A DNA stretch of 58,724 bases, filler included, from Sphacelaria rigidula (lineage: Eukaryota), in assembly GCA_964200075.2 (NCBI GenBank). It is 10 parts of 10 records of this genome, joined end to end, with 100 filler letters (N's around TTAATTAATTAA, not from the genome) between each part and the next. Parts side by side here need not be neighbours in the genome. Positions count along the whole stretch, not along the records: positions 47,061 to 52,842 come from CAXNAA020024506.1; 9 more parts are not named here. One strand, written 5' to 3'. Position 1 is the first letter of the stretch, and every line of letters begins with the position of its first letter. The position numbers were made by a program, and so were the translations under genes. Under the pieces are notes generated by a model. It was given only the letters and a program-made list of their open reading frames with translations, was not told the DNA's origin and searched no databases. Positions 2,844-54,900 of the stretch are shown here, piece after piece.

Positions 2844-2979
2844 CATTACCGTGGCCGCCCCTCTCGATGTCATCAAAACGCGGATTCAAAACCGCCCTTT
2901 CAACTCCCCGGAGAGCGGGGTCGTCATCGTGCGCCGACTACTCGCCAACGAAGGCCCCGGGGCGTTTTTCAAGGGCCTG
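2844..2979 (+). CDS. GGC1: GGC1-like mitochondrial carrier, penultimate exon
   Basis: Phase-2 acceptor aag|C matches the previous exon. Encodes ITVAAPLDVIKTRIQNRPFNSPESG...NEGPGAFFKGL. Donor gtgagt at 2980. Confidence 0.88.
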
Positions 2980-3245
2980 GTGAGTTTTTGCAAGCCGCTG
3001 AAGGTGACCGGGGAGGCGGATGAGACTCCAGATCTTGCGGATCTCACCTGGTTTCGGTAGTTTGGGACACGTTTTGGGTAACCAGCGTTCACAAATTTAT
3101 TTTTGAACAGGTCTCGAAACTCCGCCGCTCCATCTACCCTTGCTCCGACGAGACAGCTTTGCTGCCCGGCAATCGGTTGCGTATTGCACTCTGCTTTCGT
3201 CACGTAGACAGCGTTAACGAGCTTGTTCTGTGTCAACTTTTCCAG

Positions 3246-5783: not shown

Positions 5784-5883
5784 NNNNNNNNNNNNNNNNN
5801 NNNNNNNNNNNNNNNNNNNNNNNNNNNTTAATTAATTAANNNNNNNNNNNNNNNNNNNNNNNNNNNNNNNNNNNNNNNNNNNN
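5784..5883. other. Artificial contig linker (N44-TTAATTAATTAA-N44); one of nine
   Basis: Identical 100-bp spacers at 5784-5883, 11667-11766, 17550-17649, 23433-23532, 29315-29414, 35197-35296, 41079-41178, 46961-47060 and 52843-52942. TTAATTAATTAA gives stops in all six frames. The intervening contigs are 5783 or 5782 bp, i.e. size-sorted. Confidence 0.98.
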
Positions 5884-6579
5884 GTCAAATGTGTTGAACT
5901 TGGCTTCAGGCTACGAGCCCGTGTTGGAGGCATTATTTAGTGTCGGTGAGCCAGCAAAAGAACTGAAAGGAACCAGACCCCCAACGAGTGCTAGGATCGG
6001 GACACCCCAGTACGCTGACAACATCTAACCAATACAATTGAAGCGAACAAGCTGGAGATTCTCTCGAAGGAGTTCAAGAGAGGGAGACGGTAAGAACGGT
6101 CGGATGGAGAAGTAAAGAGTGGTCGAGCAAAGTACTCGTCGTTCTGGTATTCGGAGTTCGTAGCGATATGACAAGAATGGAGTTTCAAATGAAATGCAAT
6201 GGAGTTGGACTCGAATGTTTGGCAAAAGGAAAAGTAGAAAGGGGGGTAGAAGACTTCTGAGTCACGCTAAAGCAGAGCGCGAGCAAGGAATTGGAAAGGA
6301 TAGAGACAAGTAAGGTGTCGGCATGGGTTAGAAGAACAGGGTGGAGAGTGTGCATAGCTCATGGAACAGCAAACCTAGGACGTAGTCCAGGGGTAAACAG
6401 AGGGGAAGAGATGCAGGAACAGGCAAGTGTCCGGAAGGAGAAAGGGAGGAGACATAGCGGCCCGAAGCAAATAGAAAAAGACCAACGCAGAAACGGGAAG
6501 AACAATCAATCGAGGGAAAGTAAAAGTAAAAGCGACCGAGAGAGAATAGTAGACAACAGGAGAGCATATAATAATTCGG

Positions 6580-7660
6580 AAAGGAAGTTGAGAATAGGAT
6601 CGAGGAACGTGTGTGGGTTCGTCACAGACAAGCGCAAAAGAAAAGAGATAGCGCAACAAATGAGTAAACACGACCTAGATATAGTAGGAATTCAAGAGTC
6701 ATGGGAGAAAGAGGGGGCAGAAATAGGATGCAAAGTTGAAGAGTACGTATGGATAGGGAAGAAGCGGAAGGGACAGAAGTCCAAGAGCAGGGAAGCGGGG
6801 GGAATAGGATTCTTGGTCAAGGGATATATCTGTGTGACAGTATAGAAGTGATCGACGACACGAAATTCGACGAGAGCATATGGGTAAGGGTACCATGAAA
6901 GCGGGGAACGGAGGACTTCTTCGTAGGTGACATATGTACATCCCCCCAGAATCGAAGAGTAGGATGAACGATATACAACGGAGGTTTGGAAAGATGGCAG
7001 CAAATGTACATAAGTATAAAACGCAAGGAGAAGTAATGTCAGTGGGAGATTTTAATGCGAGTAGGGAGAGCATGCCAACCGGATGATATCATTAGGCAAT
7101 ACAGGGAAGGTAAGAAGAACACGAATGGGGTAGAAATACTGAAGTTTCTTGAGCATAACGAGATGAAAATGCTGAATGATGGAGCACAAAAGCCAAAGCC
7201 GCAATGGACATGGACTAGAAAATGCAAAAACGAGATAGAACGTTTTGTTCTTGACTATATAGTGGTAGAGCATGGGAATAGTAAAGAAATGGAAGTACAT
7301 ATATGCGCAGAAGACGTGGGAACTGCAGACGATTGCCTAATATGGACAGAAAGCCAACAGACGAGAGCTAAAAAAATAGGCGGGGTAGGAAGTTGTACAA
7401 ATGGAGAATCGGTAAACTAGATATGGAAGAAAAACAGCAAGAAGAGTTCCAAGAAGATATGGCCAAAAATGCAGGCAAGTTTTCCGAGCTGTTGGAACGC
7501 GTAGGTACAGTTGATACCGAAATGGAAAGAAAGCGGGCAGGAACGAAGATCATAGAAGGATGGGAGCAGATGGTCGAGAACTCAGCGAGAGAAGTCGTAG
7601 GGATGAAACTGATCGTATGCAACAGAGCAGTAAAATGGTGGGATGAGGAAGTGAGGGGCT
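6580..7660 (+). mobile_element. Decayed non-LTR retrotransposon (LINE) ORF2 fragment: APE-type endonuclease domain
   Basis: Motifs RIGSRNVCGF, DLDIVGIQESW, GGIGFLVK, VGDFNARVG, NGVEILKFL, QWTW, VLDYIVV and AVKWWDEEV lie in shifting frames with stops. The strand is strongly purine-rich. No RT domain follows. Confidence 0.8.
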
Positions 7661-7794
7661 GTTCTGGCTACAGTGGTCGTCGGAGGTGTGTTACAGAAGT
7701 TTTGTAGTCGTCGGAGGTGGGCAACATGAACTTTTTATCCCTGTAGTCCTGGAGAGCTTCGTCGCATCATTAGAATTTTGCAAGAGTCGGACGA

Positions 7795-8010
7795 ATGACC
7801 AATTCGTCTGGAAATTACTTGATTTTAGTGTGATTGATTCGTACCGTGCGAATCAACCCCTACGCTTTATTTCCAGCGTCGCAACCCAGGTATGCGCTGC
7901 CTAGGCACATGGAATGACGCAAAATTTGCGTAGAGACCTTTTGGACCAACGGTCAAGATTTTGTCTCTTTCGAGCAATCTGGCCTGAAAAATCGTGGATT
8001 CGGTGATTCG
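7795..8010 (+). repeat. Family B dispersed non-coding repeat
   Basis: attcgtctggaaattacttgattttagtg...gaatcaaccc...caacccaggta...tggaatgacgcaaaatttgcg aligns with 26460-26700 and 46810-46960. Confidence 0.75.
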
Positions 8011-9515: not shown

Positions 9516-9687
9516 ACAGGGTTCACGGAAACTGTGCAGTGTTACTCGCGGGGAATTAGCTGTAGGGTGTTTTTTTGCGCCACAGAGTACGCTTCACAGG
9601 GTTTCAGGGAAACTGTGCAATGTTTGTCGCGGGGATTTGGCTGTAGGGGTTTTTTTCGCGCCGCACAGTACGCTTCATAGGGTTTCG
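9516..9687. repeat. Tandem duplication, ~80-bp unit x2 plus partial
   Basis: acagggtt...gaaactgtgca.tgtt..tcgcgggga.tt.gctgtaggg...agtacgcttc starts at 9516 and 9596, with a partial third copy at 9677. Confidence 0.85.
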
Positions 9688-11407: not shown

Positions 11408-13075
11408 AATTTAAAATATTTAAATTCACAGACGTTGTCCCAAAATAATTTGGAATTTTCAACAAAAAAAAATGGAATTTTCAAAATTGGGAGGGCCTCT
11501 CCACACACACGCGGCCATTCGGCTACCCCCTTAAAATCCTCTATCGTGATTTTCATCCTCTCGAGGGTAAAGCGACTCTCGGGAGGATAAAAATATCCTC
11601 TAGAGGGTATTTCATACTCGGTTCCGGTCATGAAACGAATCCTCTGGAGGGCATCTGATGCTTCAGNNNNNNNNNNNNNNNNNNNNNNNNNNNNNNNNNN
11701 NNNNNNNNNNTTAATTAATTAANNNNNNNNNNNNNNNNNNNNNNNNNNNNNNNNNNNNNNNNNNNNTTCCACGTGTCTGGGCTGCGTGTACCTGTGTTGC
11801 AACGCTGAAATAAGGCCTAGGGATTGATTCGTCACGAGTTGACTCATCATACTAAAACCAAGTAATTTCCAGACAAGTCATTATTTGTCCAACCCTTGCA
11901 GTCTTGGAATCTCCGGGGCCGTGCTGGCGCACCTCGAGCATGCTTTGATGTCGCACCGCATGTCACTTGTCAACTTCACTGTATTGAAATGCTGCAATGC
12001 AGCTGCACTGCATGCCTGCAGACACAATACGAACCGCACAGGACACTTATCCACCAACGGCTATAAAAACGACAACGGCAGCACAAAAAATCGATGTGTA
12101 ATCGCCATCTACTGCGCACAGCAGCGTAAGCAGCGGCTGTATCTGTGTGCACTGCGTTTTACGATACAGGAGCAGTACGTGCATCTACTTGACAATACCA
12201 AAGGCAAGGTAGCAGGGAATGCCCCAAATGCGAAGAGGCACATCGTTGTCGTCTGTGTTTTAATGGTTGAGTTTTCGATACCGGAAGGATTAAATACGGC
12301 ATAGCTGTGAAGTGGCGATGTGTAGCCCATCGGTAGGAGAACATGATGACCAAATTGACCAAAACAACAGAAAGTAGCCACTACCCTCCTTCAGGGCTTG
12401 GTTCCCGACGTAGAATTTCTCCCGTACCCGTCCAAACACGTATCGTTGACTTTTCGGTCAATCTGGAAACAGGCTTCTCCCCTCCTCAAAATCCACCCCG
12501 CCGCCCACCACCTTCTGGAAACCCCTAGATATGTCTGGACTGTCAGCTGGCGAAGCTTCTCTCCGACGATGCTCATAGTCTAACGATTTCACGGCTCTGA
12601 CACGTCTTACTAGAGCGATTACTTTCTCACGTAGCTTCTTTGCTTTGGACTCCAGCGTAATCATTCAGACCCACGGTCAGACGAGCGACGTTTCTCCGGA
12701 TAGACGTGGTCCACATACAGCTGTGTTCCACCGCTAGATAGAGGCAAACAACCGTCCTCTTCCCTTTATACTAAAAAAAAGTTCGACTACCCCCACTTCT
12801 AGCAGTACCTGATTACCATGCGCATGATATACAGCCCAATGGCTGACGGGTAGCGGGCAGCTGCATTTGGAATTTGGGTGTCTCACAACAAAGCCACATG
12901 AAGCAATTCTATTACGAAAAACATTAGAGATGAATTTCATGGTGTGGCTTTCACTCGCTTTTCCCTATCTTGTTCACACAAGTGCCTCGTTCACGCACCC
13001 TTGCCTACCTACTTCCCTTGTCTGTCTTTGATCCCCTTGCCCGGTGTCGTTGTCCCGTCCTCTATGGGTACACAG

Positions 13076-13109: not shown

Positions 13110-13324
13110 GTAAGTGTCTCTTGTTACTTCAAGTGCTGTTCGTGTGCTAGGTAAAGTATCGTGTTCTTCCTGCTGGCACAATTACGGCAGATATCCATTG
13201 CGCAACGTTCGTAGTCTGGCGCATGACGTCACATTCGCCAGTGAAGCAAGCATCCTGCAGCATTTCCGTCACAAACGTGCCGGTTTGGTAAATTCATTTT
13301 CCTGCTTCCCTTGTCTTGCATCAG

Positions 13325-13482
13325 GCATTACAAGAGGGCGTCTGGAGCACTGCTGGTATTCGACGTTTCCAGTCGATCGAGCTTTGAAAACGCGGAGCGA
13401 GTGTGGCTACGAGAGTTGAGGAACGCCGCGGACTCAAATAGCAGTCTCATGGACTGCCTCGTGCTTGTCGGCAATAAAATTG
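13325..13482 (+). CDS. Rab-family small GTPase, internal exon
   Basis: Phase-consistent acceptor tcag|G. Encodes [31 protein letters not shown]...LVLVGNKI. Donor G|gtacgt. Confidence 0.88.
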
Positions 13483-14199
13483 GTACGTGTTCTTCTGTCT
13501 CTCACGTTGTTTTTTTCCCGAGGAAGCGGGGGATTGGTTGAGAAGCGTGCGCTTGAAGTTTGAAAGTGTGTGGCGAATCAGTTTGCTGTGGTTGAAAGGG
13601 GTTCAATTTCCCGAATTGATTTTACTCTAGTAGGTCCGTGGTGAGGCGCAGGGTTAGTCGCTCCTGAAAGTGGCCCCCACTTGCAGGTCTCGTACATCGC
13701 ACGCACTGCAGCATCACGGCGGCCCACGAAGATGTTTGGCCTCGTTGAGGTATGACGAGATTGGGTAACTGACGCCGAGGATCGTGCATATACTCACGCA
13801 TGGGATCATCGAGTTGTATGCGACACTGCTGGTCTGGTGGCTAGTATGATTCGATTGAACGCGACTCGAGGTACTACCGCTGTGTGCATGGATGACAAAA
13901 ACTCGTGGTCCTCACTGAACGAACGGCACGTTGTGAGAACACTTTCAGCGTAATTACGCTCTCAATCCCGTGGTGGCCTTACGCCGAGTTGTCCCTGTCG
14001 GAAGTGACGTATGTATGTCTTGGTTTCGCGCAACCAGACCACTTTGTATGAGCTGGGCCAGCAGTAAATCCCGCATTCGCATTTTACACCATAACTTATC
14101 AAGTTTACCAAATCAGCCCGACTTGAATATATCCGTGTGACCTGCAGACCAACGCGGTAACGCACGGGACCGCCGCCGAAGGAGTTTTTTTTTTAGTGT

Positions 14200-16477: not shown

Positions 16478-16747
16478 TCAGGAGTCAGAGAGCTCCAGTT
16501 CGAATTCAGACGCGCTGTCACTGTCGGAGCCTGTGGCACCACTTTTTTCAGAGCCATTGCCATCGTTATCGTCACTGCCCATGTCTTCGGAATCGCTGGG
16601 CGCGGACGGCCCGGCCCGGCGTCCCTTGGGCTGCTGCGGGGTAGACGCTTCCGTCCGACGTCGCCGTCTTGATCCCTCGATGACATTGCTCATATCGAGC
16701 CCTTCCAGATCAGCCTCCCTTGCCCTTTTCTCTTGCGCCTCTGTGAT
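16478..16747 (-). CDS. CHZ-domain histone-chaperone-like (HIRIP3-like) protein, last exon
   Basis: ttgcag|ATC acceptor. Encodes ITEAQEKRAREADLEGLDMSNVIEGSRRRRR, resembling the CHZ motif (E..LD..NII.G.RR), then an acidic Ser/Asp-rich tail and stop. Confidence 0.7.
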   Translation of the reverse strand: MTEAQEKRAREADLEGLDMSNVIEGSRRRRRTEASTPQQPKGRRAGPSAPSDSEDMGSDDNDGNGSEKSGATGSDSDSASEFELELSDS

Positions 16748-16949
16748 CTGCAAATTTGTGGCGAAGCGAACAGGTGACCAGTTATGAACGATTTTATAAA
16801 GAAGCACCGTGGACGTTCGATCGCTATATGTTGGTGACACGGAGGCAAAGAACGCCACAGTCTGTCTCACTACCCTTCGTAGACAGCTATACAAGCCGAG
16901 CGAGTTATTGGCAATATCTGGCCGACATGGCATCATTCCTTTACCTCAC

Positions 16950-17549: not shown

Positions 17550-18080
17550 NNNNNNNNNNNNNNNNNNNNNNNNNNNNNNNNNNNNNNNNNNNNTTAATTA
17601 ATTAANNNNNNNNNNNNNNNNNNNNNNNNNNNNNNNNNNNNNNNNNNNNCCGAGCCTTTTGAACAAAATAAATGAAATTTCGATGGTCCGTTAAACCTCA
17701 ATTGAATGTTGAACTTTGAAAACGAATCCAGGCTGTTGAAGGTAGGACCGCATGCTGGGTTCCCTCATATGTCACACATCCAGTCATAACACAATCCGTT
17801 ACCGCAGACGAAATCTGGTACCCATAATATGTCATCAATCTGCTCCCCGTGTACCCGAATTAATCCACGTACACATGTACTACTGTCCAGCTCGACGATA
17901 TTCAAGTAGCGACGATATTCAACTAGCCCCCCTCGTCGAGGCTCAACCTTACTCATATCATACACAAAATCTTACTTCCATCCCATGAGATCAGACAAAT
18001 TCAAAAGCACAAATGCCGGGATACAAGGAAGACTCAGCAAAAAAAGAATCGTCAAGGCACATCATCTCCTGAATTATATG

Positions 18081-20840
18081 CCCCCCTGACCCCACATCCT
18101 CTCACCATTTTCGGGAGCATCAAGTATCAGAACTCATGAGGTGTTTTTCCAAAAATCTACCAAGAAAAAAACACTCTTTTCACCACAGTAATCAAAAGAT
18201 ACTCATGACATAGTCACGGTGGAATTCAAAGCAGTCTGCCGGTAAAACCTTCGACAAAAAGTCGGCATGCTGGTACTCAGATCTGACATGAATAGTTGAA
18301 ATATCCCGTCTTCCCACTAATTCCCTGAAAAATGGTATCTTACATCGATGTGCTTGGAATTAGAGGTTGATATGGGATTATATGCCATTTGAATAGCACC
18401 CTGGTTATTCTCGAACATCGGGATACATGTCTCTCCAACTTCAGGCAGCATGAATTCCCACCCCTGTCTCAAAAACAGCACCTCCTTCACCAAGTCGGTT
18501 ATTGCAACGTCTTCTGCTTCAGAAGTCGACAACGTCACACACTTTTTTGTCCTTGAGAAGCATGACACACATCCACCCCGCACATGACTAATCCACCCGA
18601 CACTGATCGCCTATCGGCAGCCTTACTCGCGTAATCTCCATCAGCATATGCGCGAAAGCTGAGACCTTGCAAACTGCCACTCCGAAAAGTAGTGCCCAAT
18701 GTGCTCGTTCGCCTAACATACCCAGGTATACCAAGAGCATTGCGCCAGTGAATAAACCTTGGGGATGCGCAATATCTCGCTACCGCTCTCATCGCGTTAC
18801 AAATATCCGGTCTCTTCTGGTTTGCCAGCCACATGAGTGACCCTACCAATTCTCTGAATGGGAACGTCGTGACCTGCTCAGCGTCATTGAAACCCTCGAG
18901 TTTTACACCTGCACTCATAGGCGTCTTACTCCCCCATGATATATTGTACTTCTCCGCCAACTCCTCTGCAAACGTTTGTTACGATACAGTAAGGGTACCC
19001 CTTTTCAAGTCTCTCTCGTACTATAGTCCCGAATACCATCTCAGTTCTCCTGGATTCTTGACTGGAACCATCGTGTTCAGCTGTTCACCAAATCCATCAC
19101 ACCTTTCCTCATCCCCTACGGCAAAGATATCATAGACATGTACCACCAAGGTGATCACCACTTGGTTGTCCTCCATCAGTTGGAACACACACGAATCCGT
19201 CAAGCACTGATCAAAACCTAAATTCTTAAGGCATCATGCTAAATGAATATGCCGCTGTCTCGAAGCCTGTCTGAGGCTATAGAGCGATTTATTGAGTCTC
19301 ACTACCTTACCAGACAAATCACCACAGCCATGAGGCAAACGCATAAAAACATCTTCGTTCAGCACGGACTGCACAAAGACTTGCTTGATATCGAAATGGC
19401 GCAACGAAAGATTTCGCTCACAAGCAAGTGCTGTCAGCAATCGTACACTCGAAACCGCTACTGTAGGTGCATACAATGCACCAAAGTTAATGTCTGCCCG
19501 TTGTCGATCTCGCCTTGCGACCAGGCTTGATTTCGCTTTCGTTGGCCACCCAAACTCATCAGTCTTCCAGTTGTAAACCCACTTCGCGGAAATAATATTA
19601 TCTACTGATTGCTATATTACCGCATCCATGGTTCCCGCTTAATTCAGGCCTTGAAACTCTCGCGCCATGGAGCCCTCCCATACTCCTCCCTATTCTGGGC
19701 GTGTTGCTTCAGCGTATGTCTTTGGTGTGGTCAACTCTTTCACTGGGCGATGGGGAAGTCTAGGTGGTTCATACGGCGGACGCTCCTCCTTCATTGCTAT
19801 GTTGATGTCCTCGCGCGTTGCCATTGTAGTCGCAGCCCGATGTTGCAAACCCTTGCGCCCCCCTGCCCCATCGCCCTGCCGCTTCCTTCGGGCCTCTCTT
19901 GCGGAGCGCGTCAGGTGGGCGAATGAAAGGGATGGTTTGTCGAGCTGCGCAAAAAGATCCCTCTCATGATGGAAAAGTGTAATGCTGTCGTCCCCCTTCC
20001 TCTCGACTGTATGCTGGGCCGTCTCCGATCGGGTCCTCCCCGGTTGCTGAGGGTCACTACTCAGGTCAAGTTTTTTCGCCACCCTGTCGGGCAACGGTGA
20101 TAGAGAGCGGTCTTGTAGACGGTGAGTTGCTGATGAAGCCTCAAAATGGATGATGGTGCCGAAGAGCCATTGAAAATTGAGGTTGAAGTTGGTTGACGGT
20201 GCAGCGAATGAGGTTGCTGGGGTGGTGAAGTCGGCCGTATGTCGCGCTGGTTCTGTTTGTGTTGCGTGGCGACGGATGGTGGTGGTGCCGACGATGTGGT
20301 GGAAGTTGGAGATGAATGATGTGCCGCACGAGTTGGTGTAAATATCGGTGGTGGCACGGTTGTGCGATGTAGTGGCGGTGGCAAAGTATATTGTGGTTGC
20401 GGGTAAATGAGATAATAAGGTCAATGTCGCGGCGGAAAACAATTGAAAGGTCGCAGCGGGACGAGATGGGAAGGCTTTTGGTGTCGTCCCAGCGGAGCAG
20501 TATAATATGGTCGTGGTGAGATGGGATAGTAAGTTCGCGGACCAGCACGGTGTGGCGGCGGCGGCAAGTTGGCGGCGGCGGCATGCGATTGCGGCAGTGG
20601 GATAGTTTGGTTTCGCGGCGGCGGCGGGTTGTAGACGGCGGCGGCGGGTGCGGGATGATGTGATGATGGAGCGACATGGTGGTGCGGCGGCAACACGCGA
20701 AGATACCGTCGAACAGCAAAACCAAACATTTCAGGGATTGGCATCAGGCAGTCCGTGAAGAACGGAACAGAAATCGACAAATTACCGTTCGTATTATGAA
20801 ACAACGCGCATGAAACGCTTTGCAGGTTGGACGACACGCA
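18081..20840 (-). mobile_element. Decayed, internally deleted Ty1/copia LTR retrotransposon (RT-RNase H retained)
   Basis: Minus-strand motifs KSSLVARRDRQ, YAPTV, HFDIKQVF, LNKSLYSLRQASR, VVHVYDIF, PFRELVGSLMWLA, RPDI, AYADGDYA...RRSVSG, TLSTSEAE, NNQGAI, SKHIDVRYHF and QHADFLSK, with frameshifts and a stop at 18192. A PPT-like GGGGTCAGGGGGG lies at 18093-18081. The Pro/His-rich region at 20050-20840 is gag-like. No integrase motifs seen. The upper boundary is approximate. Confidence 0.85.
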
Positions 20841-23192: not shown

Positions 23193-24169
23193 GCGAATGA
23201 CGACGTACCAGATATTGTTTTTTATTTCCTACAGCACTTTCTCGATCGAAAAATATCTTGCGAAGGTACGGCCAGAACCGATGAACCCCTAGACGGCGAG
23301 GGTAGGTCATCTGGCCATGCACTGATTTTTCAAGTGAAGCTGATGATGATTCAATAAATAACCTATGCTCGCGGTCAAAGGGTTAAAACAGCCGATCATC
23401 TATGTTGAGGATGGTGCTTTTCATTGAGGATGNNNNNNNNNNNNNNNNNNNNNNNNNNNNNNNNNNNNNNNNNNNNTTAATTAATTAANNNNNNNNNNNN
23501 NNNNNNNNNNNNNNNNNNNNNNNNNNNNNNNNATCTACTTAGGTGCCTTGTTTGCAGATCGGAGCGTGCGATGTAGTAGTGATCGATCTGACGCAGTAAG
23601 CTACCCCCCCCCCCCGTTCATGAAGAACAGCCAGGGCCAATTACCAACGTACGGATGGCTACGGGCACAACTAGTACGATAGTAATGAATCGGAACCTGG
23701 AGGGACGTCATCCCCCTGCAAATTTGTGCGTCAAGTAAAATCCCAAGTCGCCTCGTAGCGTGGACCCTGTACGGACTCATGCTACGGTAGGGGTTGCACA
23801 TCCGGGCTCAGATATTTGTCCTTCAGAGGCTCCTAACGAAAAAAAAATTCGGAGCACAAAAACAACACTGCGGCGGCTCGTTTATCGTCGTCGTCCCTGC
23901 CGCCCAATTTCGCGATATACATGCACACACATTTGTGTACATTATATTATATACGAAGTAAATTTTATTATTGTTATTTTTTATATTTTTATCAAGTATA
24001 TATATATATATGCATATATAACCCGAAACAAATGCATGGTCATGGCAGAACACGCACCGTGTATCACCATCACACCAAGAACTTTCTCCATCCCCATCAA
24101 AAATGAGGGGCAACACAAAAAAAGTCAACAAGAAAAAAAAAAACGGTGGCTCTCGTTTCATTCACGTAC

Positions 24170-24498
24170 GTCTTGGCAGCCTTCCTCGGGAACTCCGTCA
24201 CCTCCAGCGGCAACTCCGCCAGACCATCTTCGCCCAGCTCACAAACGTCACACCCGCAATCTCCACCCCCGGCCGCCTTCACCGACGCGTTGGCAAACTC
24301 CAACTCCATCTTTGTCACCTTCTCTCTCTTCGTCTTGTTTGCATCCATCTCCTCGCCCCCATGTGGAACACCTGACGGTGATGTTTTGCGGGGCTCTCCA
24401 GAGGTCAGGGCACGCGCTAAGCATGCATCCTTCAGGGGACACGCGGAACACGAAGGACTTTTTGCAGTGCACACTGTCGCGCCTAGTTCCATCAAGGC
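24170..24498 (-). CDS. MUTYH: A/G-specific adenine DNA glycosylase MUTYH/MutY, exon with 4Fe-4S motif and interdomain connector
   Basis: cccag|GCC acceptor. Encodes ALMELGATVCTAKSPSCSACPLKDAC (C-x6-C-x2-C-x5-C), ...DCGCDVC... and VTEFPRKAAK. Donor gtacgt (exact donor slightly uncertain). Confidence 0.9.
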
Positions 24499-24589
24499 CT
24501 GGGGGGTTTCACGAGGAATTCGCCGGGGAAGGGAAGGGGGTGGCAGGTGGAGGGAGGTACGCGGGCGGGGAGAGAGAAAGAGGAGAGGA

Positions 24590-25108
24590 GGGGGTGCACT
24601 CATGATCTTGCATGCCGTAGTCAGCAGACCATTGACCTTGCGTCTCTGCAAAGCCGGGATGGAGCACGCCAGGTTTTCGCCGGACCAGGCTGGCAATCAA
24701 GCACCGAGTGCAAGGGGCCGTGATATGTTTGTTCGGCGAATCACTCCAAGGGTGGACTGCATCCTGCTAAGGTTGTTCGGCCCGAAGCGTACAGATTATC
24801 TGCTGCATAGGGATGGCATCCTGCAATGAGTTGCTTCGCTTTCTGGTATCGCCACTTCGAGAGATAGCCACGGTTTACACTGTCTCATGGGTGTCTTACC
24901 ATGTAAATACCACGTATCGTAGTACGATCATCCTATTTGCGCGGAGTTGAGGTTCTCCACCCCGCACACTATGATTCAACTCGACCGCCATCATTGTTAC
25001 CGCAAAAAAAGTAAGCGAGGCAAAAAAGGGGTAGCGGTTGCCTAGCTTACGCGGCGAGTGGCTTGTTTTGCAGCGTCGTTGCCAACCGATGTCAACCCTT
25101 CAAAGGGG
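24590..25108 (-). mobile_element. Family A element, longest copy (~520 bp), in MUTYH intron
   Basis: Colinear with 43730-44240 over the whole length and flanked by G-rich tracts. Confidence 0.75.
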
Positions 25109-37330: not shown

Positions 37331-39930
37331 AGGCCGCTGTGCTCGTGGCAACTTTGATTTGCTTTCTAGTGTGCACGCGAACAGACAGCTTCTCATGGGT
37401 GCAGTCGTGGCGCGGCTCATGCTGTATGAATAGAGCCGGTTTGGCAGCGGCTGTACCCACTGCATAACTGTACCGTGGGTCGCGTAGACGAGCTTGTCAA
37501 AGGGTATGCCATGCCTACTCAAGAATGCCGTACCCTTTGAAGCATTTATCACTGAGTTTGCTCGTCGACTACTGCACAGACAGACGGCTCACCACTACTC
37601 TGAAGCAAATGGTATCAATTGCCCATCCATTGTTTGTCTCGATTCGCGTTGGCACAACAGCAGTCCAGAGCAGCACGTATGCGTTACATTTCCTACCTGT
37701 GCTTCTGTACTGTACTGTGACAGAAGTAAATACAGGGGTACGTGCTGTTATCGCCATGAGGCTCGACATAGTTCACAGTCAAATATACGGGGAACCCAGA
37801 AGTTGCTGTCACCATCCTTAATCCCCGTCTGCGTGCAGCAATCAGTTTTTATCTCTGCATTTTTCGGTGTTTGTGTCTCACTGCAAGAGGTCTCGTGAGA
37901 CAGTGGTGCGGTGCTTTGCGTACGTGATGAGAGGTACAATATCTCGAACTCGACGTTTCTGTTTATTGAACCGTAATTGTACTGTTGCACATAGTGGGGA
38001 ACAGGGTGGCGGAGAATAGTTCAACCAATAGCGTATTCGCGAGATTGAAAATAGTGGATACGATTGAGAGTGAAAAGCGGTCAATTATTTACTGAACAGT
38101 TTCAGTTCCGAAATGCCCCTCCATGAGGCCCGATATGCTTTCTGCAGTTTCTTGCCACTGGAGCCCTTGATATCCCTTGAGTAAAAAATCGATGTGTAGC
38201 CGTAAGCACCCGGCAGGGTTATAGGCAATGAAAAGCACACAGAGAATGAGTAACTGGTCAAGTTGAAACGAATGATCAAAGCCACTCTCGATCAACGCTG
38301 TACTCTCAATCTCACGAAAACATTGTTAACCGTGGTATGAAAGTCTATGGGGGGCGGTCTTGCAGCGTGCGACACGAACTGCTAATACACCTACATTCGA
38401 TTGCGCCCGGAATAATCTGAAGATGGTATGAGTAGATTACGGAGCTTGAGACACTGTACTGTTGTTGCACATAGTGGGGCACAGGGCGGCGGAGGATAGT
38501 TCAACCGTGGTATGCGGTAAAGTCTATGGGGAACGCAGTCTTGCAGCGTGCGACATGAGCTACAAATACATCTGCAGTCAGATATACCGAAATACTCGAG
38601 TTTGAGATAGCGGTGCGCACACGTGACCGCGCGCAGAACCGGCTCCCATGCCGACCGCACACCGGTGCGGTTTAGCGAGCCTCTGCTCAACAACATCGCG
38701 ACGACGCGTGTTCCTTCTGGACTCCCAAGCGGTCATGAACGCCTGCCGAAATATTGCAGGATCAGCCACCGCGATCACGCTTGTTCGAAGAGTCGCAAAG
38801 GCGAGCGTATGAGCGTTCCGCTCACACCCACACTAAATGTAGCACGAAATACGCGGACTGGACACCTAGCATTGGCGTTCGCCCGGACAGTCATCTCCCG
38901 AGGCGGGCGCTGAGGAACTTGCACACAAAAATCAGCATAAATGTCGTGGACGCCTCATTACAAAGTAGGCTGCGCGCTCTTGCGTCCAAGATGTTACACT
39001 TCCTCTGTTTCATAAGTCTGGGAACCTATCTTAGTACGAGCCCTTAAAGGTGTCCGATTTGATTTCTAATTTTTTGATTGCATTCGTTGGCATTTTTTGA
39101 GCTAAAAACAACACTCCTTCTGCAACGTGGGTGCTCGACGCGTGCAGTGTCGCGGTCGAGAAAAAGTAGGTCGGCAAAAAAACGGCAATTTTTCGCTCTT
39201 TTTCCCAGTGAGCATGGGGGATTCGGGAACACGAAAAATCGCGAAAAACCGTGAAAAAACCGTGAAAATCGCAAAAGAACCAGTGATTTTGTATATGTCC
39301 GTGACGTTAATCTACGCACGCCCCATCAAACATATTTTCAACATGTAATCGCTGGTGTTTGACGTAAAAACGTACAAAAATGGTCAATATTGGGGGTATA
39401 CGCGGACCAAAAATGGGCCAAAATGGGCATATTTTGACGTCATTTTAGTGTGGATCACTGACTTTTTTTTTTTTGCATCAGCTTCGTCGGTGTTTCATCT
39501 TTCCAACGAACCCAACTATAGGATGATCGGAAGTGTTTGAATGCGCAAACGATTGAACGTCCATAAGTGCCCGGACTTATGAATCAGAGGAAGTATATAT
39601 ACTATGTTCAGGTGACTTGTAACACAGAACACATGAAACCACAACGGTTGTCAATAGCATCGCTCGGGGAACACAAATTGGCTAGAAATAACGCTCTGGG
39701 CACGCAGACGCGTGTGTTGTACTACCAAAGTCGATGTGTTCTGTGTGAGAGCAAAATTCGAAATTGGGTTTTTGGCGGATTTGACTCTTGCGGGGTTCGC
39801 GACCTGTACGCTCTTATTTGCTTACCCCACCTGCAAAAGGGCCGCGCCACCGAAGAGCCCTACCCCACGAAATGACGGGTGGGAAACAAGATGTTCACAA
39901 GATTCAATATTCGTATGACATGAACATACG

Positions 39931-40330
39931 GTGGAGAACATGTACGCATGATCCGCGCTGCATAAATCAGAAGTGGAGAACATTTACATCTGATACACTT
40001 TGTATGAATGGAAGGTAGAGAAAATGTACGTATGATTCATGCCGCATGAATGGAAATTGGGAAACATGTACGCTTGATTCATCTCGTATAAAAAGGAGGC
40101 TGGGAACATTTACGTATGATTCATGCTGCATGGACAGAAATTGGGGAATCTGTACGCTTGATTCACTTCGTACGAATGGAAGTTGGGGTGCGTGTGCCAA
40201 TCGTTCATGCTGAGTGGATAAAAACTGGGAAACATGGACCTATAATTCACGCCATACGAATGGAAGGTAGGAAACTTGTACCTTTGACGGTGTACCGCAC
40301 GAATCACGAACTGGGAATGTGTACACGCAA
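39931..40330. repeat. Degenerate 42-bp minisatellite, ~9.5 units
   Basis: Units start at 39931, 39973, 40015, 40057, 40099, 40141, 40183, 40225 and 40267. Consensus is approximately NTGGGAAACATGTACGYWTGATTCAYNYYGYAYGAATGGAAR. Confidence 0.85.
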
Positions 40331-46960: not shown

Positions 46961-48409
46961 NNNNNNNNNNNNNNNNNNNNNNNNNNNNNNNNNNNNNNNN
47001 NNNNTTAATTAATTAANNNNNNNNNNNNNNNNNNNNNNNNNNNNNNNNNNNNNNNNNNNNCCCCACGCCGTACCGACCAGACCGGTCATGGCCTTCGTCG
47101 GAGGACGGGGAACGGAGTGTTAACTCACGAAAAAAAAAACTTTTTGGTGCATCTTCCCGATTTTTTTATTATGCCCTATGCATTGTCCATACCAAATTTC
47201 AGGGTCCAACTCTTATAAATATTGGCCGGCGCATTCGCTTTTCAAGAATCGGATCGGTAGAAATTCGGAACAGTATTTTGCAGGCCACTCACCGGCCCAC
47301 GTTTGGTTTTTTTGTATTGAAATTTTGTGTGGGCCCTCGCCAGAGCATAATTAACAAAACTCAGTTGATCAGTTCTTCGTTTATTCATTTTTTCACTGGT
47401 TGACGGCGTTTTAGTGTGGCAAAGACCATTTCTTTATGAGAACGCCCTAACCTCTATGAAAACAAAAAAATGAAGGCCCATTTTGTTTTTATTCGCCACA
47501 CTCCTGTGGTTCTCCATGTTTCAAATCACAATTCTAAATTTTGAGCTAAAATATTGAGATAAGGCCTGAGAGCAATGTCCATGTCTCCCTAAAACTCCAC
47601 TGAAAACACGAAAAAAAATGAAAAAAAAAAAATGAAAAACGTAACAAGCTGTTCTTATTTTTCTTATTATTGCACCAGCGGTTCACCACACGAAATGACA
47701 TGGAACAACTCTCCAAAACTGAGACGTGATATCCAGATTTAGGGCACCTAGTGCCCCTGCTCTTATTATATTTTGATTATAGTATGGAAACTCACGGGCG
47801 CCATATCTCGGGATATATGAGTTAGGTGCAGGTGAGGGTATTCATCGCCTCCCCGTGCTCCAGAGAATGTTCACACCAGAAGTCGTCGTCATCATCCGCT
47901 GAATGCATCGATTGGGGGTTCCATATAGATTTTAGTATAGACATGATCTCCGTTGGGTATAGGAATGACTAGACATAAGGTTTAATCAACGAGAATATAT
48001 GTGCCAAACATTTTGAGCAAATGGGCACCTCCCCCTTGGTAAGACGATTAATACGATATGCGGGTCACGGCCCAACTCGTCTATGTCGATGATATATTAC
48101 TTTGAGAGCTTGAATCCGTCTTTACGCTGGCCCAGCTCGTAAGGAGTGCTAAAATTTCGTCACAAGCAGCCACCTGCTCCGACACTCCCTCTGGTGCTGT
48201 GCGTTGGGGACCTGCGGTGCACTGTTGGACTACACACTGTTGAACTTCTGTCTTGTGTTCAGTGTAACTCGCTGTACTATCTATGATACTGTACGACTGC
48301 GTTGGAACCAAACTTTTGAAAAAATCCAAATTTTTCTGTCACACGTTTTCTGTCACGAAAAAATGTGACACGAGAAAAGGCCCCAAAACACCATTTTTCA
48401 TGCTGAAAA

Positions 48410-48591
48410 TTGGAATTGATCAATTTCTTGCAAAAAAAACAACAAAAAGTAATCGTAGAGTCTATATTGATCGATTTCTTGCAACGAAGTTTACAAAACA
48501 AAACAATTATGACAATTTTCTAAAAAATGTCCTCCCGAGGAGGGGGGGGGGGGGGGCACGCGTTCGAAATTCTTCTACGCGCTGCCCCCTG
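48410..48591. repeat. Family D repeat end
   Basis: Aligns with 22340-22462. Confidence 0.65.
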
Positions 48592-49357
48592 GTTTGGGTG
48601 TTATGTTCCTTATAAAATAAAAACGATGTACCCCTTGGCTATCGAAAAATAATATCAGATTTGTTTCCCATCAGAAACAAGAAGTGGGTTTTTGGTCGTT
48701 GATCAGAAGACGAAAGGGGCGGCAGCGTTCGAGAGGTCGTGGTGACACCGAGACAAACGAGAACCGGACCGCCGCTACAAAGGAAAGGCTGCTGCATCAA
48801 CAGCCGCCAATCAGAGAACTGACAACAATAGCTCGGGAGGAGTCCACGATGGATATGGCCCAGAAAATACTTGCCTTGTACACGACTAGGGATAACTGCG
48901 AAACATTTCAAAGCCGGGAAACAGATACTTGTAAAAAAGAATTGAATCCACCGGGATTTCAACCCTCAGCTTTTCGCCCTCATGCATTTTAGAGGAAGCA
49001 GGTGCAATCCAGGGCCGCGACGGTATGATGAGTGGGTACAAATGCACCCTTTTGCTCGGCGACCTACCAAACGCATTGTGAGATCAAGAGGTATCAGCCT
49101 AATTGAGATCGAAAAGTAGTAAAATCAGCTAGAAACAATATCAAGCTGCGAGGAAAAGTAGTCGAGATAATCGGCCATCACAAAATAACCCACAAACAAG
49201 ATTCGGCGGCCTTCGCCTCCCCTAGCTATCATCCAAACACCCGGAAACACATAAAATGACATCCATCGCGGACATTTGTGGGGAATCATACCATGCGCAC
49301 ATGACAGGTACTGTGAAACAGCATTATGCCGTATACCAGCTGGGGTGTGTGCACAAG

Positions 49358-51938
49358 CTAATCCTCTCGCGGGCGAGAGGGGGAAAACACGTCCAATTTT
49401 AACTCCACGTCGGCTCCCTCCTTTTCAAACATCCTATCCCTCGCTGCCACATCAAATAGCGGCTCCACCTGCGGCGTCCGGCGTGGCCGTTTTGTGCTTC
49501 TTCCACCGGTGATGACAATATCACAGCTCCTGTTTCTGGTAGTGCCACTGGATGGCTCAGCAACCAGTGGACCACTAGTTCTAGTCCCGTCGGGAATTGA
49601 GCGAGCAGGCGCAGCAGTTGCCTCTATTTCCATTTTCAAACGAGATTCTGCCCCACCCAGAGAAATCCTATCTGCTGCCGCCACGCGGGGAGGCGGTTCT
49701 GTGACGGCGGGCGACGTGGTCGTAAAACTCGCATCTCATCGCCCAGCACGGATCGCGCGCAAGCTACGACAAGAAGCGTTACGACCACCATCGTTCGCAT
49801 TCGCATCCGATGAATAGTCAACTCTTGCAGTACGTACATCGATACCGACACCAGTCTCCCCCGAAGCCGAGTTATTGTACCGGCGATTTTCTTCTTGGAC
49901 ATGCCCTGCTGCATAAGACGCAATGGCGGGAAAATGTGCGGTAGAACTATTGGTAGTTAACTACCCTCTAACACGATTGGAAGGACGCCATGACGAGCAT
50001 TCACTGCCGTTGGAACAACCTGCGCGGGCGTGCGTGGAACAGGGCTCCGCCTTCCTACCGGCTGCACCGAGCAATACTTTTTGCGAGTAGCCCTCGTTCT
50101 TATATCGTTTGTTTTTCACGTCAACCATGCCTGCCCGGGCGTGTGTGGCGCAGAACTCCGCCTTCCTGCTACCGGCTGCACCAAGCGATGCATTTTTGGA
50201 GCAGCCCTCTTCGCCGCACCGCTTGTTTCATACGTCAACTACACCCGCTCGGGCGTGTGTGGCGCAGAACTCTGCCTTCCTGCAACCGGCTGCACCGAAC
50301 GATGGTTGTGTGGAGCAGTCTTCCTCGCCGCACAGCCTACCTCTGACGTTTACCATGCCCGCTCGGGCGTGTGTGGCGCAGAACTCTGCCTTCCTGGTAT
50401 CGAGTACACCGAACGATGGTTGTGTTATGCGGCCTTCCTCGCCGCACAGCCTGCTTGCGACGTCAACCATGCCCGACCCGGGCGTGTGTGGCGCAGAACT
50501 CTGCCTTCCTGCTACCGGCTGCACCTAGCGATGCTCGCGTGAGGCAGCCGTTCTTGGAACACCGCTTACTTGTGACGTTTACCATGCCCCCTCGGGCGTG
50601 TGTGGAGCAGAACTCCGCCTTCCTGCTACCGGCTGCACCTAGCGATGCTCGCGTGAGGCAGCTATCCTTGGAACACCGCTTACTTGTGACGTTTACCATG
50701 CCCGCTGGGGCGTGTGTGGCGCAGAACTCTGCCTTCCTGCTACCGGCTGAACGGAACGATGCTCGCTTGGAGAAGCCCTCTTCACCGCACAGCCTACCTC
50801 TGACATTCACTATGCCCGCTGGGGCGTGTGTGGCGCAGAACTCTGCCTTCCTGTTACCGGCTGCACCGAACGATGGTTGTGTTGAGCAGCCCTTCTCGCC
50901 GCACAGCCTGTTTGCAACGTCAACCATGCCCCCTCGGGCGTGTGTGGAGCAGAACTCTGCCTTCCTGCTACCGGCTGCACCTGGCGATACTCGCGTGAGG
51001 CAGCCGTCCTTGGAACACCGCTTACTTGTGACGTCAACCAAGCCCGCTCGGGCGTGTGTGGCGCAGAACTCTGCCTTCCTGCCACCGGCTGCACCGAACG
51101 ATGGTTGTGTGGAGAAGCCTTCCTCGCCGCACAGCCTGTTTGCGACGTCAACCATGCCCCCTCGGGCGTGTGTGGCGCAGAACTCTGCCTTCCTTTTACC
51201 GACGGCACCAAGCGATGCTCGTTTGGAGCAGACCTCTTCGCCGCACCGATCTCTCACGCTAACCATTCCCTCTCGGGCATGTGTGGCGCAGGAGTCCGCC
51301 TCTCTGCTACCGGCTGCACCAAATGATGGCCGTTTGGAGCAGACCTCCTCGCCGCACCGGTCGTTTTTCACATCAACCATGTCCACTTGGGTGGGTGTGG
51401 GGCAGAACTCCCCCTTCGTGATACCGATTGGATCGCATAACGGTCGTGTGGAGCAGTTCATCTCGCCGCACCCGTGCTTGTTTTTTACGCCAATCATTCT
51501 CGCCCGGACGTGTGTGACGCAGAGCTCAGCCTTCCTCTTACCGACTGCTCCGAATGATGATAGTGTGGAGCAGCCCACCTCGCCGCACCGCTTGTTTTTC
51601 ACGTCAACCATGCCCGCTCGGGCGTGTGTGGCGCAGAACTCTGCCTTCCTGCTACCGGCTACACCGAACGATGGTTGTGTAGAGCAGCCCTCCTTGCCGC
51701 ATCGGTTATTCTTTACGTGACCCATGACCGCGTGGGCGTGCGTGACGCGGAACTCTGTACTTTTACAACCGGTCGCACCGAACGATACGTGTTTTGCGCA
51801 GTCCTCCTTGCCGCATAGCTTGCTTTGTACGTCAAACATGCCCGCCCGGGCGTGTGTGGCGCACAAGTTCGGCTTGCTGCTACCCGGCCAGCCATATGAT
51901 GCCGTCGTAATGCAAACTATGTGCACTCAAAAGGGCAT
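49358..51938 (-). pseudogene. EsV-1-7-type Cys/His repeat protein gene (17 x ~38-aa repeats), intronless, disrupted
   Basis: ATG at 51938 and 114-bp tandem units encoding C-x4-C-x3-(P/A)SFG-x9-C-x2-H-x3-GMVDV. Lesions: TGA at codon 4 (51929-51927), a +1 frameshift near 50476, and TGA at 50230-50228. Repeats span ~50020-51930. Inclusion of the low-complexity tail to 49358 is tentative. Confidence 0.85.
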
Positions 51939-54900
51939 CTTCACGACACAGGCCGCGGTAGTCCAGTCGCTGCTGCGCTGCGATCCGCACCGTCACACTC
52001 CCGCCCACAAAGACCAGCTCACCGATTCAGCAGCACCCTGGAACCATCAAGCAGCGAAGATATCATGCGTCGAACCCAAGGGCAAGGTAGGTAAACTGTC
52101 CCCACAGTGGAGTCCCCGGAAATAGGCATACGTATTGGAGTGGACAGCAAGCCTAACCATGGAGTGATCAAAATATGCTTTTTCTACACGGCGGGGCGAT
52201 TGAAGAAGAGAAGGGGCGTAGAACTCTAAACCTGCCCAGACATTTATAGTGCCGAGGTCACTCGTATTGTTTCTACTCATCGGATTTGCTCAACACACGA
52301 CGCGCCCGCGATCACACTGATCTGCGCTTCCTGGGTCGGGGGTTATACAGGCTGGACGGCCAGCTCATGTTGGTGATATCCCGTAGCAATAATCAGGTGA
52401 CGCCGAGAGCACAAACCAGGCGGGTGATGACGTGAAGATGGGCGGTATACGCCGATTCAACACGGTTAGCGTACTGTCATGGGCTGCCCTCGCCTGTGCG
52501 GGTAGGCGACGGGTGTGTGGTGATGGTGGGCACTGACAGGGGGGTTGTGCATGCTACTATACCCGTCGTACGGCCCCCACCAGACGGCATGATAACGGGG
52601 AGCTGTAGCTTACATTACGAACCCCCTATTGAGCTTCGAACGAGGGAAGATTGTGGAAATGCACTTCTCTCGGATACGCCACTCCGTCGCTCTGGAGGGT
52701 GTAAATAATGATTGTTAAGACTATTTGACTTGGCGGTATACAACCAAAGAGCAATGCTACGGTAGGGGTGCACTTTTTTCGCGAAATTATGTCTGGTTCA
52801 GGGGCTCCTAACGATTCAAGATGTACAAAAATATGGGTCAGGNNNNNNNNNNNNNNNNNNNNNNNNNNNNNNNNNNNNNNNNNNNNTTAATTAATTAANN
52901 NNNNNNNNNNNNNNNNNNNNNNNNNNNNNNNNNNNNNNNNNNTATATCACTAGACTGTTGTACCTTACCCTGACTTGGTGTATCTTACTGGACACCGCAG
53001 GCCATCCTACGAACACCACCTGGCTCGATACCATCTCGACAGTTGGTGGAAGAACATCAAGCGAAACAGTGGTCGGCTATCAACACCTCCTGTACGGAGT
53101 TTCGTGCCTGACCGACAGGTGCAAAGCTGCCTACAGTGCGATTAACATGTGACACTAACAAACGATAGCGTTTGAAGCATGATCACCCTGCCTTTCTAAA
53201 TCACCCCCGATTTTGAGCCGAAGCCGCAAAATCTTTCCCGAAACACTTACAGGCTGCTGCCCTTCGTATGCCGTGTGTGGCATGCTGCATGAGGTCGCGC
53301 GGACTCACGCGCCACCCTACTACGCATCCTCGAAAGTGACACCGCTAGAGGCGATTGCCTCCCAGAAAGCAAGCAACGCTCCAGAGTTCACAACACCGGA
53401 GACTAGCCCCATCGCCGTTGACAACGAACGGACGAACGGAACGGATCGTGTAAGCGAGGGGGGGTCTGACTTGCGGCAAAATTTGGTCACCAGAGGACGG
53501 GACACGAATAGTTGTCGAGTGGACGCTGATTGCGGTGGCGGTAGTAAGGAGTCGGGACAACCGCTAGAGGGAGGAAAGGGGAATCCGGCTGGCGCCGGAG
53601 AGCAAAGGGAACTTCAAGGTATCTATATTGGCAGGGAACGTGCCGCAAAGAATGTGAAGCTACACACAGATCACGTTGCTGAACAGTTAGGGAACGGAGA
53701 ATTCCCGCATCATCCAGTGACTCGTGATGTGGCAGTTCACGTCTATTGGGAACTTGATTGACCGGTTCATCAGAAGGACCGTCGCAAATCTCCATATTGT
53801 GCCCTGATACATACATGCATATGAAAATGTATATAAAATAGGGGTCTTCCCGAATCTATACGTCCCGTGGCGAAACAGGACTTTGTTACAGGAATGCGCG
53901 CAATAGCCAGATCAGAGTGGCTTGACGCCAATCATCCATTTTCGCGGGCGCACATCCCATTTGCATTCAGGAAAGTACATTTCCAGACGATGAATGTGGA
54001 AGTCCCGGCGCCCCGTGTAACGGTCAAGTTGATAATCGATAAGTCGAGGGCGACGGAGGTGACGTCTTCTCTGAAAACGTACCTCCGCTTCGCCCCTCTA
54101 CAGGCGACGACGTGGGGTGCACACCACCCACAAATCCTGTCCGTGAGCCAGCCAGCGATCTTCCGGCGTTAGTGAACAGGTCAGAATGTTCACGAGATCA
54201 GTTCGCTTCACTGTCCTGGGGAAACAGGAGACACACCAAACCTCATCGCTTTCCTCGAGGGAATATCACGCAAAAAGCCGTGCAAGCAATTACGTTTCTC
54301 GGCTGATAGCTCCATTCTGACAAAGTTGTACGTGCTTTCACGAGCTCGCTGGTAAAGAATATCGATGTGCTAAAGCATCCAACTTATTGTTCGTTCCCTC
54401 TTTTCTTCGTTCGTACGCGCAAAAACAAATGCTTCACCTACTTTCGGGCACCGAACGAACAGTAGAGGCAAGGGTCGTGCAGAAGTTGCAGAGGGGTCGG
54501 AGTGTGAAGTTCAACAATGGGTGTGGAATTGTGATTTGTGATACCAACAAGGTGAATGAATGGTAATGGCACACTGTCATTCAGAGCTACAGTCGTGCTC
54601 ATGTCCGCCATACGGTACAGATCAAGCGCCCACTGAAATTGTTTTTCAGACTTCAAACCATGGGCCTGGATTATTGAATGGCAATTGTAACAAGAAATCA
54701 CCCAGATAGTAAGGATGCTGCCGCGTACCAGAACAAGCATGCTCGTGTCGTAGAATGTTCTCGTCGAAGGTGCTCATCGTCACCTGTACTGTAGTGGTCT
54801 AACCGCAGGGTTCGCCTTGCTCCAAGGGTTCATCTGGAGTTTCAGTGAAATGCCGGGCGATGCACGGCTAAACAATGGAGGCTAAAACAATACCAACGTG

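Follow-up and report, generated by a model that had tools for sequence, protein, structure and literature searches.

A 17-unit EsV-1-7 repeat array in Sphacelaria rigidula: a probable pseudogene laid out by tandem duplication and decay

EsV-1-7 proteins (PF19114/IPR043822), among them IMMEDIATE UPRIGHT (IMM) and the product of EsV-1 gene 7, share a tandem 38-residue Cys3His unit. According to 10.1101/2024.02.19.579948, 2018 proteins of the family were counted across 31 genomes, as many as 335 of them in Ascophyllum; the family is much expanded in brown algae, often occurs as tandem arrays of genes, and has in IMM its sole member with a phenotype. In PMC7457493 the IMM product is termed a protein of unknown function, and 10.64898/2026.04.27.720984 describes expression patterns for the Ectocarpus members and no other Pfam domain. 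PMC12477816 reports that TcMar-2_Ec32, a transposase of the Tc1/mariner group, bears at its N-terminus an EsV-1-7 domain, presented there as a possible uncharacterised zinc finger. Our literature searches found no report of a ligand or structure for the repeat. Here we analyze an EsV-1-7 locus of Sphacelaria rigidula (GenBank assembly GCA_964200075.2) in a stretch of 58,724 nucleotides that joins 10 records (the window); the locus lies within positions 47,061–52,842, which come from CAXNAA020024506.1. It shares the family's tandem unit, lacks the IMM-specific N-terminal domain and, in contrast to the transposase, carries no enzyme domain. The copy is very probably a pseudogene, derived from an intronless EsV-1-7 gene and owing its layout to tandem duplication and decay.

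A different kind of system was invoked when this DNA was read without database searches (the sequence-only reading): an active modular array whose localized variable residues, under diversifying selection, would serve to recognize nucleic acid or a viral ligand. In TALE and PRDM9/KRAB C2H2 arrays, near-identical coding repeats, each roughly 100 bp long, stand in tandem, vary at two to three positions and are reshaped by unequal exchange. Both the pseudogene status of the locus and the distribution of differences among its units bear on this comparison.

Tandem Repeats Finder reported one strong array in the window, with a period of 114 bp and 15.6 copies at 50109–51884 (77% matches, score 1671). 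Anchoring on the Thr-His-Ala codons gave 17 tandem units on the minus strand, from 51941 down to about 50006, in agreement with the number of units first proposed. Unit spacing is 114 nucleotides except in u5 (117, one additional linker codon), u7 (111, one linker codon fewer), u13 (115, one additional base) and u17 (111, one codon fewer).

50006–51941, minus strand: array of 17 EsV-1-7 units, 38 codons per unit (Tandem Repeats Finder, Pfam PF19114, unit extraction and codon alignment)
51941–51828, 51827–51714, 51713–51600 and 51599–51486, minus strand: u1, u2, u3 and u4
51485–51369, 51368–51255, 51254–51144 and 51143–51030, minus strand: u5, u6, u7 and u8
51029–50916, 50915–50802, 50801–50688 and 50687–50574, minus strand: u9, u10, u11 and u12
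50573–50459, 50458–50345, 50344–50231, 50230–50117 and 50116–~50006, minus strand: u13, u14, u15, u16 and u17

The domain identity was confirmed by profile search. The open reading frame (ORF) at 50463–51926 on the minus strand matched Pfam PF19114 (EsV_1_7_cys) in 12 stretches (E=4e-140, 455.8 bits, cut-off 25), and a second one at 50228–50524 on the same strand matched in two stretches (E=8.7e-28, 96.3 bits). The consensus unit reads KNKR-C-GEEG-C-STRP-SFGAAGSRKAEF-C-AT-H-ARAGMVDV, with a ligand spacing of C-x4-C-x16-C-x2-H. All four ligands are present in 10 of the 17 units, and 400 of 441 homologue units are CCCH. These data support the assignment of the locus to the EsV-1-7 family, with Cys3His units. 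Every four-residue string and linker listed in the sequence-only reading was found in the unit alignment. TSKR/CSK../LTR recurs three times (u9, u12 and u13), with the correction that u12 reads CSKDSC rather than ..GC, A(N/S)RL...TQP three times (u8, u10 and u14) and RGRL twice (u11 and u15), and the units at 50494 and 50608, in the register used there, are identical at 107 of 114 nucleotides. Given the repeat detection, the Pfam match and the presence of all listed strings, the array observation is real and far beyond chance.

The former extent of the gene was traced by tblastn of 93 homologues against the window, homologue retrieval having been limited to proteins of 267–853 amino acids. Nineteen of the 93 gave a single-frame match that continues beyond the downstream end of the array, with starts at 50494–50356. 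For 17 S. rigidula proteins this match reaches 49364–49394, while it ends at 49886 for P0018 and at 49793 for P0067. The alignments are collinear in one frame from 50476 to about 49367; P0034, for instance, aligns over residues 1–392 of 394 with 50% identity (E=8e-96). At the other end, reading from the ATG at 51938–51936 yields M-P-F-(stop)-V-H-I-V-C, an N-terminus of the MPxxC....C type also seen in P0016, P0031 and P0059, and none of the 93 homologues matched anything upstream of 51950. Because of the collinear downstream alignment and the MPxxC-type N-terminus, the ancestral gene is reconstructed as one exon, 51938–49358, that would have encoded about 860 residues, comprising the 17 units and a tail of about 215 residues.

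49358–51938, minus strand: whole probable pseudogene, ancestral single-exon ORF from ATG 51938–51936 to TAG 49360–49358 (tblastn collinearity, N-terminus likeness)
49361–50005, minus strand: C-terminal non-repeat tail, about 215 residues (tblastn, alignment with 17 S. rigidula paralogues)
49495–49478, minus strand: TKRPRR motif in the tail, basic, conserved
49411–49394, minus strand: DVELKL motif in the tail, conserved

The tail is shared with 17 paralogues (P0002, P0005, P0007, P0011, P0012, P0021, P0023, P0025, P0032, P0034, P0038, P0046, P0047, P0050, P0057, P0079 and P0083), across which it shows the motifs ..TKR(P/L)RR..VEP.FDV.. and an acidic ..DVKLEL.. end. The TKR(P/L)RR motif may be a nuclear localization signal. 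No Pfam family was assigned to the tail in the scan of the window's ORFs or in rescanned homologues, and an ESM Atlas search with the P0034 tail gave no usable match. By these alignments, the locus groups with a tail-bearing EsV-1-7 subfamily that is here otherwise found only among S. rigidula proteins. Several of its members (P0034, P0002, P0046, P0047 and P0023) show the same order, units followed by tail, with 48–50% identity over 340–390 residues. However, the tail-bearing paralogues have three to seven units and open frames, in contrast to the 17 units and disrupted frame, with its five lesions, of the copy described here; among the 93 homologues, within the protein sizes covered, the maximum is 11 units.

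Most of the best homologues, which are 49–68% identical, belong to S. rigidula; the others belong to Pylaiella, Ectocarpus, Scytosiphon, Ascophyllum and Laminaria. By these matches alone the host would be placed among the brown algae, probably within the Sphacelariales or close to them. An enzyme domain was found neither at the locus, nor in the precomputed Pfam annotation of the 93 homologues, nor in seven homologues that were rescanned. In one homologue, P0024, PF24906 (WRKY19 zinc finger domain) scored 36.2 bits against a cut-off of 27, no single stretch passing alone; this score may hint at a relation of the EsV-1-7 knuckle to a plant zinc-finger motif.

Five lesions interrupt the ancestral frame, each at a place where paralogues, or else the other units, align with a sense codon. 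The sequence-only reading had given neither the minus-strand sense of the array, nor its two in-frame stops and +1 frameshift, nor the two stops in the C-terminal tail, which falls outside the coordinates named there.

51927–51929, minus strand: lesion 1, TGA in place of the first Cys of u1 (codon 4; no differences in X1, X2 and X4 contigs)
50472–50480, minus strand: lesion 2, u13 with a single additional base near 50476, a +1 frameshift leading to the stop at 50465–50463 (unit DNA alignment; u13 has 115 nucleotides)
50228–50230, minus strand: lesion 3, in-frame TGA in place of the codon that opens the u16 linker (frame relative to homologues)
49961–49963, minus strand: lesion 4, in-frame TAG in the tail, a sense codon in paralogues (no differences in X1, X2 and X4 contigs)
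49736–49738, minus strand: lesion 5, in-frame TGA in the tail, mostly Arg in aligned paralogues (no differences in X1, X2 and X4 contigs)

Contigs from three public runs of two studies (X1, X2 and X4, one of which is possibly the source sample) match 49400–50153 and 51647/51837–52400 with 0 differences, and three of the four internal stops are thereby confirmed. Decay is also apparent in the units themselves. The sequence-only reading had described a fixed scaffold; instead, seven of the 17 units have lost one or two Cys or His ligands by point changes from TGC or CAC (u1 TGA, u2 CGC, u5 CCC, u8 and u11 TTC, u14 CGC, u17 TAT and TAC). Of the 441 homologue units, which were detected by hidden Markov model, only 41 depart from CCCH (Fisher p=8e-4), 15 of these simply through truncation at the N-terminal end of the alignment. 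As a result of the losses, no more than two consecutive units retain all four ligands. The full ancestral product is no longer translatable. Moreover, no retrieved homologue was flagged as encoded by the window.

At 50107–50409 and 51521–51722, summed contig depth exceeded that of the flanks by a factor of hundreds to a thousand (85308 versus 66 in X1, of which 1219 contigs aligned to the window). This excess on parts of the array points to many near-identical unit fragments elsewhere in the organism's reads; the depth is no measure of copy number. In a further run, X6, presumed to be RNA, only short contigs matched, all on repeat parts, mostly with mismatches and none on the unique flanks; this run is neutral with respect to expression.

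Three ways of avoiding inactivation, or of reading length variation into the contigs, were considered and set aside. Another genetic code or stop readthrough was ruled out, as TGA and TAG both occur as stops and a frameshift is present in addition. Introns removing the stops in the tail and in u16 were ruled out by the gap-free alignment of homologue proteins there, an argument from which codon 4 is exempt. Contig joints that skip 136–1386 bases were tried as array-length alleles; none of the skips is a multiple of 114, and since each joint occurs in a single contig and has only 20–24 bases on one side, we take them to be repeat or paralogue artifacts.

Several observations weigh against pseudogenization. 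The frameshift and the TGA at 50230–50228 lie outside the matching contig pieces, so two of the five lesions depend on the assembly. An ATG at 51839 opens a frame of 458 codons across units 2–13, and it begins with MFDV..., similar to the MVDV/MVNV at which many homologues are annotated to start. The ratio of nonsynonymous to synonymous divergence (dN/dS) of the scaffold is 0.52, indicating past purifying selection, and among the young pairs of u9, u12 and u13 ratios are 0.34–0.86, on only seven to nine differences each; inactivation may therefore be recent. In addition, dN/dS values pooled over non-independent repeat pairs under concerted evolution are rough.

The best-surviving alternative builds on the frame opened by this ATG: a truncated functional gene would run from ATG 51839 (Met35 of u1) to the stop at 50465–50463 and encode 458 residues with 12 units, u2–u13, and no tail. 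The frame is open, many homologues are annotated as starting at the corresponding MV(D/N)V within a unit, eight of the 12 units keep all four ligands, and the scaffold ratio fits as well. Such a product would, however, lack the tail, basic motif included, that is conserved in all 17 aligned paralogues, and in four of its 12 units a ligand is missing. Both the tail and the units beyond the frameshift are still collinear and recognizable, as expected after a recent frameshift and not for a long-standing shorter gene. On exact look-up in a collection of 15 billion proteins, moreover, the products of both long ORFs, and with them this one, were absent. We thus consider a truncated functional gene improbable. 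That all lesions are assembly or sequencing errors in an intact gene is very hard to sustain: the extra base does lie in a short C/G run (CCCGACCCGGG), a place prone to long-read indel errors, and short-read contigs do break inside the array, but four of the five lesions are base substitutions creating stops, three stops recur with 0 differences in contigs of three runs from two studies, and the seven ligand-destroying substitutions point toward decay too.

With the locus read as a pseudogenized gene, we turn to the pattern of variation among its units, which the sequence-only reading had described as concentrated in the linker and in the four residues after the second Cys. Column entropy is raised over the first 14 positions of the unit, with 1.5–2.3 bits in the linker, 1.3–2.0 bits between Cys1 and Cys2 and 1.2–2.2 bits in the four residues after Cys2. 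Positions 16, 18, 19, 21 and 37 of the 38-residue unit (columns 17, 19, 20, 22 and 38 of the 39-column alignment) also reach 1.4–2.2 bits, most other later positions being lower. Where their number alone would predict 21%, the eight named positions account for 31% of the column entropy, a share reached by 43 of 20000 random sets of eight non-ligand positions. Enrichment at the named positions thus stands, but it is mild, and the residues between Cys1 and Cys2 are equally variable. The entropy profile correlates moderately with that of 294 strictly spaced homologue units (Spearman 0.37–0.47), in which positions 18, 19, 28, 29, 32 and 33 are further variable positions and the Pro at position 14 is rather conserved. 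SKRP, STRP, STQP and SKRA, found in 21, 12, 10 and 6 of 441 units, rank among the most frequent four-residue strings in the family.

Positive selection at the variable positions was not found. Pooled dN/dS by the Nei-Gojobori method (NG86) was 0.94 for the linker, 1.02 between the Cys residues and 1.08 for the four residues after Cys2, values of about 1, obtained by a rough method at a pseudogene locus; the scaffold gave the 0.52 mentioned above. The proportion of synonymous differences (pS) is likewise raised in the variable blocks (0.41 versus 0.32). The variable part is under relaxed constraint, with no sign of diversifying selection. In the core units (u3 and u7–u16), codon pairs for the same amino acid differ in 95 of 348 cases in the N-terminal part versus 127 of 1038 in the C-terminal part. 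Correspondingly, third-position diversity is 0.31 in the N-terminal versus 0.155 in the C-terminal part of core units (Mann-Whitney p=0.016), and 0.38 versus 0.28 when all 17 units are taken (p=0.054). This higher silent divergence in the 5' third indicates that the fixed look of the scaffold is partly DNA-level homogenization and not protein constraint alone. A scaffold alike at silent sites, together with neutral divergence of the 5' third, provides a null model for any claim of hypervariable specificity in EsV-1-7 repeats.

Relationships among the units point to their origin within the array. In a maximum-likelihood tree of the 17 units, u9/u12/u13 (support 99/99), u8/u10/u14 (84/80) and u16/u17 (83/79) group together, and the rest is star-like. 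The first of these groups, termed type A, shows 92–94% DNA identity.

50459–51029, minus strand: span of the type-A units u9, u12 and u13, the youngest part of the array (identity matrix, tree, permutation tests)

None of the 441 homologue units shows the type-A signature (CSK..C-LTR), which is private to the array, and most units of the array are closer to another array unit than to any homologue unit. We therefore interpret the unit types as duplications inside the array. The triplets u9-u10-u11 and u13-u14-u15 are 94, 87 and 83% identical unit by unit (88% overall). A block identity of this level was reached in 118 of 5000 permutations of all units and, when only u8–u15 were permuted, in 1508 of 5000, which is non-significant; multi-unit unequal exchange is a plausible source of the similarity. 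The 3' parts of u3 and u7–u16 are mostly 88–94% identical, their 5' parts fall into types, and in u11 a linker like that of u15 is joined to a four-residue block like that of u7. The four-gamete test was failed by 112 of 300 informative site pairs, while a distance-ordered recombination statistic of the PHI (pairwise homoplasy index) type was non-significant (479 of 5000 permutations). Of the reshuffling by unequal exchange that had been proposed, two supported unit clades and the four-gamete failures thus speak in favor, but the PHI-type and block tests do not reach significance, and the process is weakly shown.

Based on these observations, we suggest the following course of events. The array may have grown by in-register unequal exchange, a plausible though weakly shown step from which u9/u12/u13 and u8/u10/u14 would remain as young duplicates. 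Over their 3' two-thirds, the units are kept alike at the DNA level, at silent sites as well. Exchanges would have occurred preferentially in this homogenized 3' part, carrying the diverged 5' third along in the manner of cassettes. The 5' third itself, comprising linker, Cys knuckle and the four residues after Cys2, is weakly constrained in the array as in the family, and in the array its dN/dS is about 1. The repeat pattern would then reflect tandem coding-repeat evolution and not a recognition code. One may go further and see in the array the fossil of a cassette system, in which the 5' third of living units carries ligand specificity, most plausibly for nucleic acid, and the 3' two-thirds serve as recombination substrate. 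We regard this extension as improbable; if it held, brown algae would possess, in their expanded family, a natural library of modular binders.

The comparison with TALE and PRDM9 can now be assessed. As in those arrays, tandem coding repeats of about 100 bp are present here, and some positions are more variable than others. However, the units are not near-identical but 72% identical in DNA on average, about 15 of 38 positions rather than two to three are variable, and there is no non-synonymous excess. The domain, PF19114, also differs from the C2H2 finger of PRDM9 and the helical repeat of TALE, and both structural models described below show only short predicted strands. That variable residues of an active array specify a nucleic-acid or viral ligand does draw on the enrichment at the named positions, on the mostly basic or polar character of the variable residues and on the recurrence of unit types, as well as on the EsV-1-7 domain of the Tc1/mariner transposase in PMC12477816. 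Against it stand the five disabling lesions, a dN/dS of about 1 in the variable part with silent divergence raised there too, and a mean pairwise unit identity of 72% (45–94%) with differences spread over the unit. Furthermore, the near-identical u9, u12 and u13 differ at 11 codon columns, only one of which falls within the claimed variable set, the reverse of the behavior of TALE or PRDM9 arrays, and the four-residue strings occur commonly in the family, with their Pro conserved. Both defining features that were examined, confined differences and a dN/dS above 1, fail, which leaves a TALE/PRDM9-like code without support at this locus and the ligand-specifying array a very remote prospect. The locus should not serve as evidence for a recognition code.

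Structure predictions were made with AlphaFold2 from a 94-row alignment, the models containing no metal. The four-unit model (u7–u10) had a mean predicted local distance difference test score (pLDDT) of 88.1 and a predicted template-modeling score (pTM) of 0.51, the two-unit model (u9–u10) a mean pLDDT of 73.9 and a pTM of 0.46. In both, short strands are predicted at about positions 16–18 and 35–37 of each unit. A sequence search of the Protein Data Bank (PDB) gave 0 matches at E≤1, and Foldseek against the PDB gave none at E≤0.001 for either model; the best Foldseek rows were zinc-binding modules (nsp13 zinc-binding domain, RING, PHD, B-box and LIM), with E above 1. The VIA wide search returned 0 chains at Z≥2 for the four-unit model and two chains, with Z of 2.5 and 2.3, for the two-unit model. 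No fold assignment follows from these searches of predicted models, and we make no claim of a new fold.

Before its inactivation, the gene probably encoded a nuclear, putatively zinc-binding repeat protein, considering the basic motif of the tail and the reported transposase fusion of the family. By analogy, this fusion to a DNA-acting enzyme in TcMar-2_Ec32 is the best current hint that the repeat may target DNA, and nucleic-acid recognition by intact EsV-1-7 arrays is better pursued on intact paralogues or on enzyme fusions. Taken alone, the locus matters little, being a single decayed copy where each brown-algal genome has hundreds of family members. It does point to a Sphacelaria-type subfamily defined by its conserved tail, in which the TKR(P/L)RR motif offers a testable handle on localization.

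For the rest of the window, 173 of 181 ORFs of at least 90 amino acids were scanned, the eight left out lying over the array. No viral or giant-virus hallmark domain was found among the 173, leaving a provirus context unsupported, nor was a second EsV-1-7 ORF. The domains recognized were as follows.

2136–3057, plus strand: mitochondrial-carrier exons (ORF scan)
13245–13538, plus strand: Ras-family exon (ORF scan)
16481–16945, minus strand: CHZ histone-chaperone motif (ORF scan)
19237–19611, minus strand: copia-type reverse transcriptase fragment (RVT_2, E=2e-25), the sole transposon signature among the scanned ORFs
24100–24696, minus strand: endonuclease III Fe-S motif (ORF scan)

From these signatures, the remaining window looks like ordinary intron-rich nuclear DNA. 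Residues 5–56 of P0085, a 276-amino-acid EsV-1-7 protein from EukProt, match 2333–2494 on the minus strand (39% identity, E=3e-6), opposite in strand to the mitochondrial-carrier exons; this may reflect a chimeric gene model or a chance match. The window contains 802 N (5784–5883, 11667–11766, 17550–17649 and so on to 52843–52942; also 4101–4110), arranged as paired blocks of 44 N with a step of about 5882 bases, a masking-like pattern and not biology. Further tandem repeats lie at 39930–40281 (84-bp unit, 4.2 copies) and 9516–9686 (81-bp unit, 2.1 copies), and positions 6001–8000 show a strong purine-strand bias, with a GC skew of 0.33 and an AT skew of 0.30.

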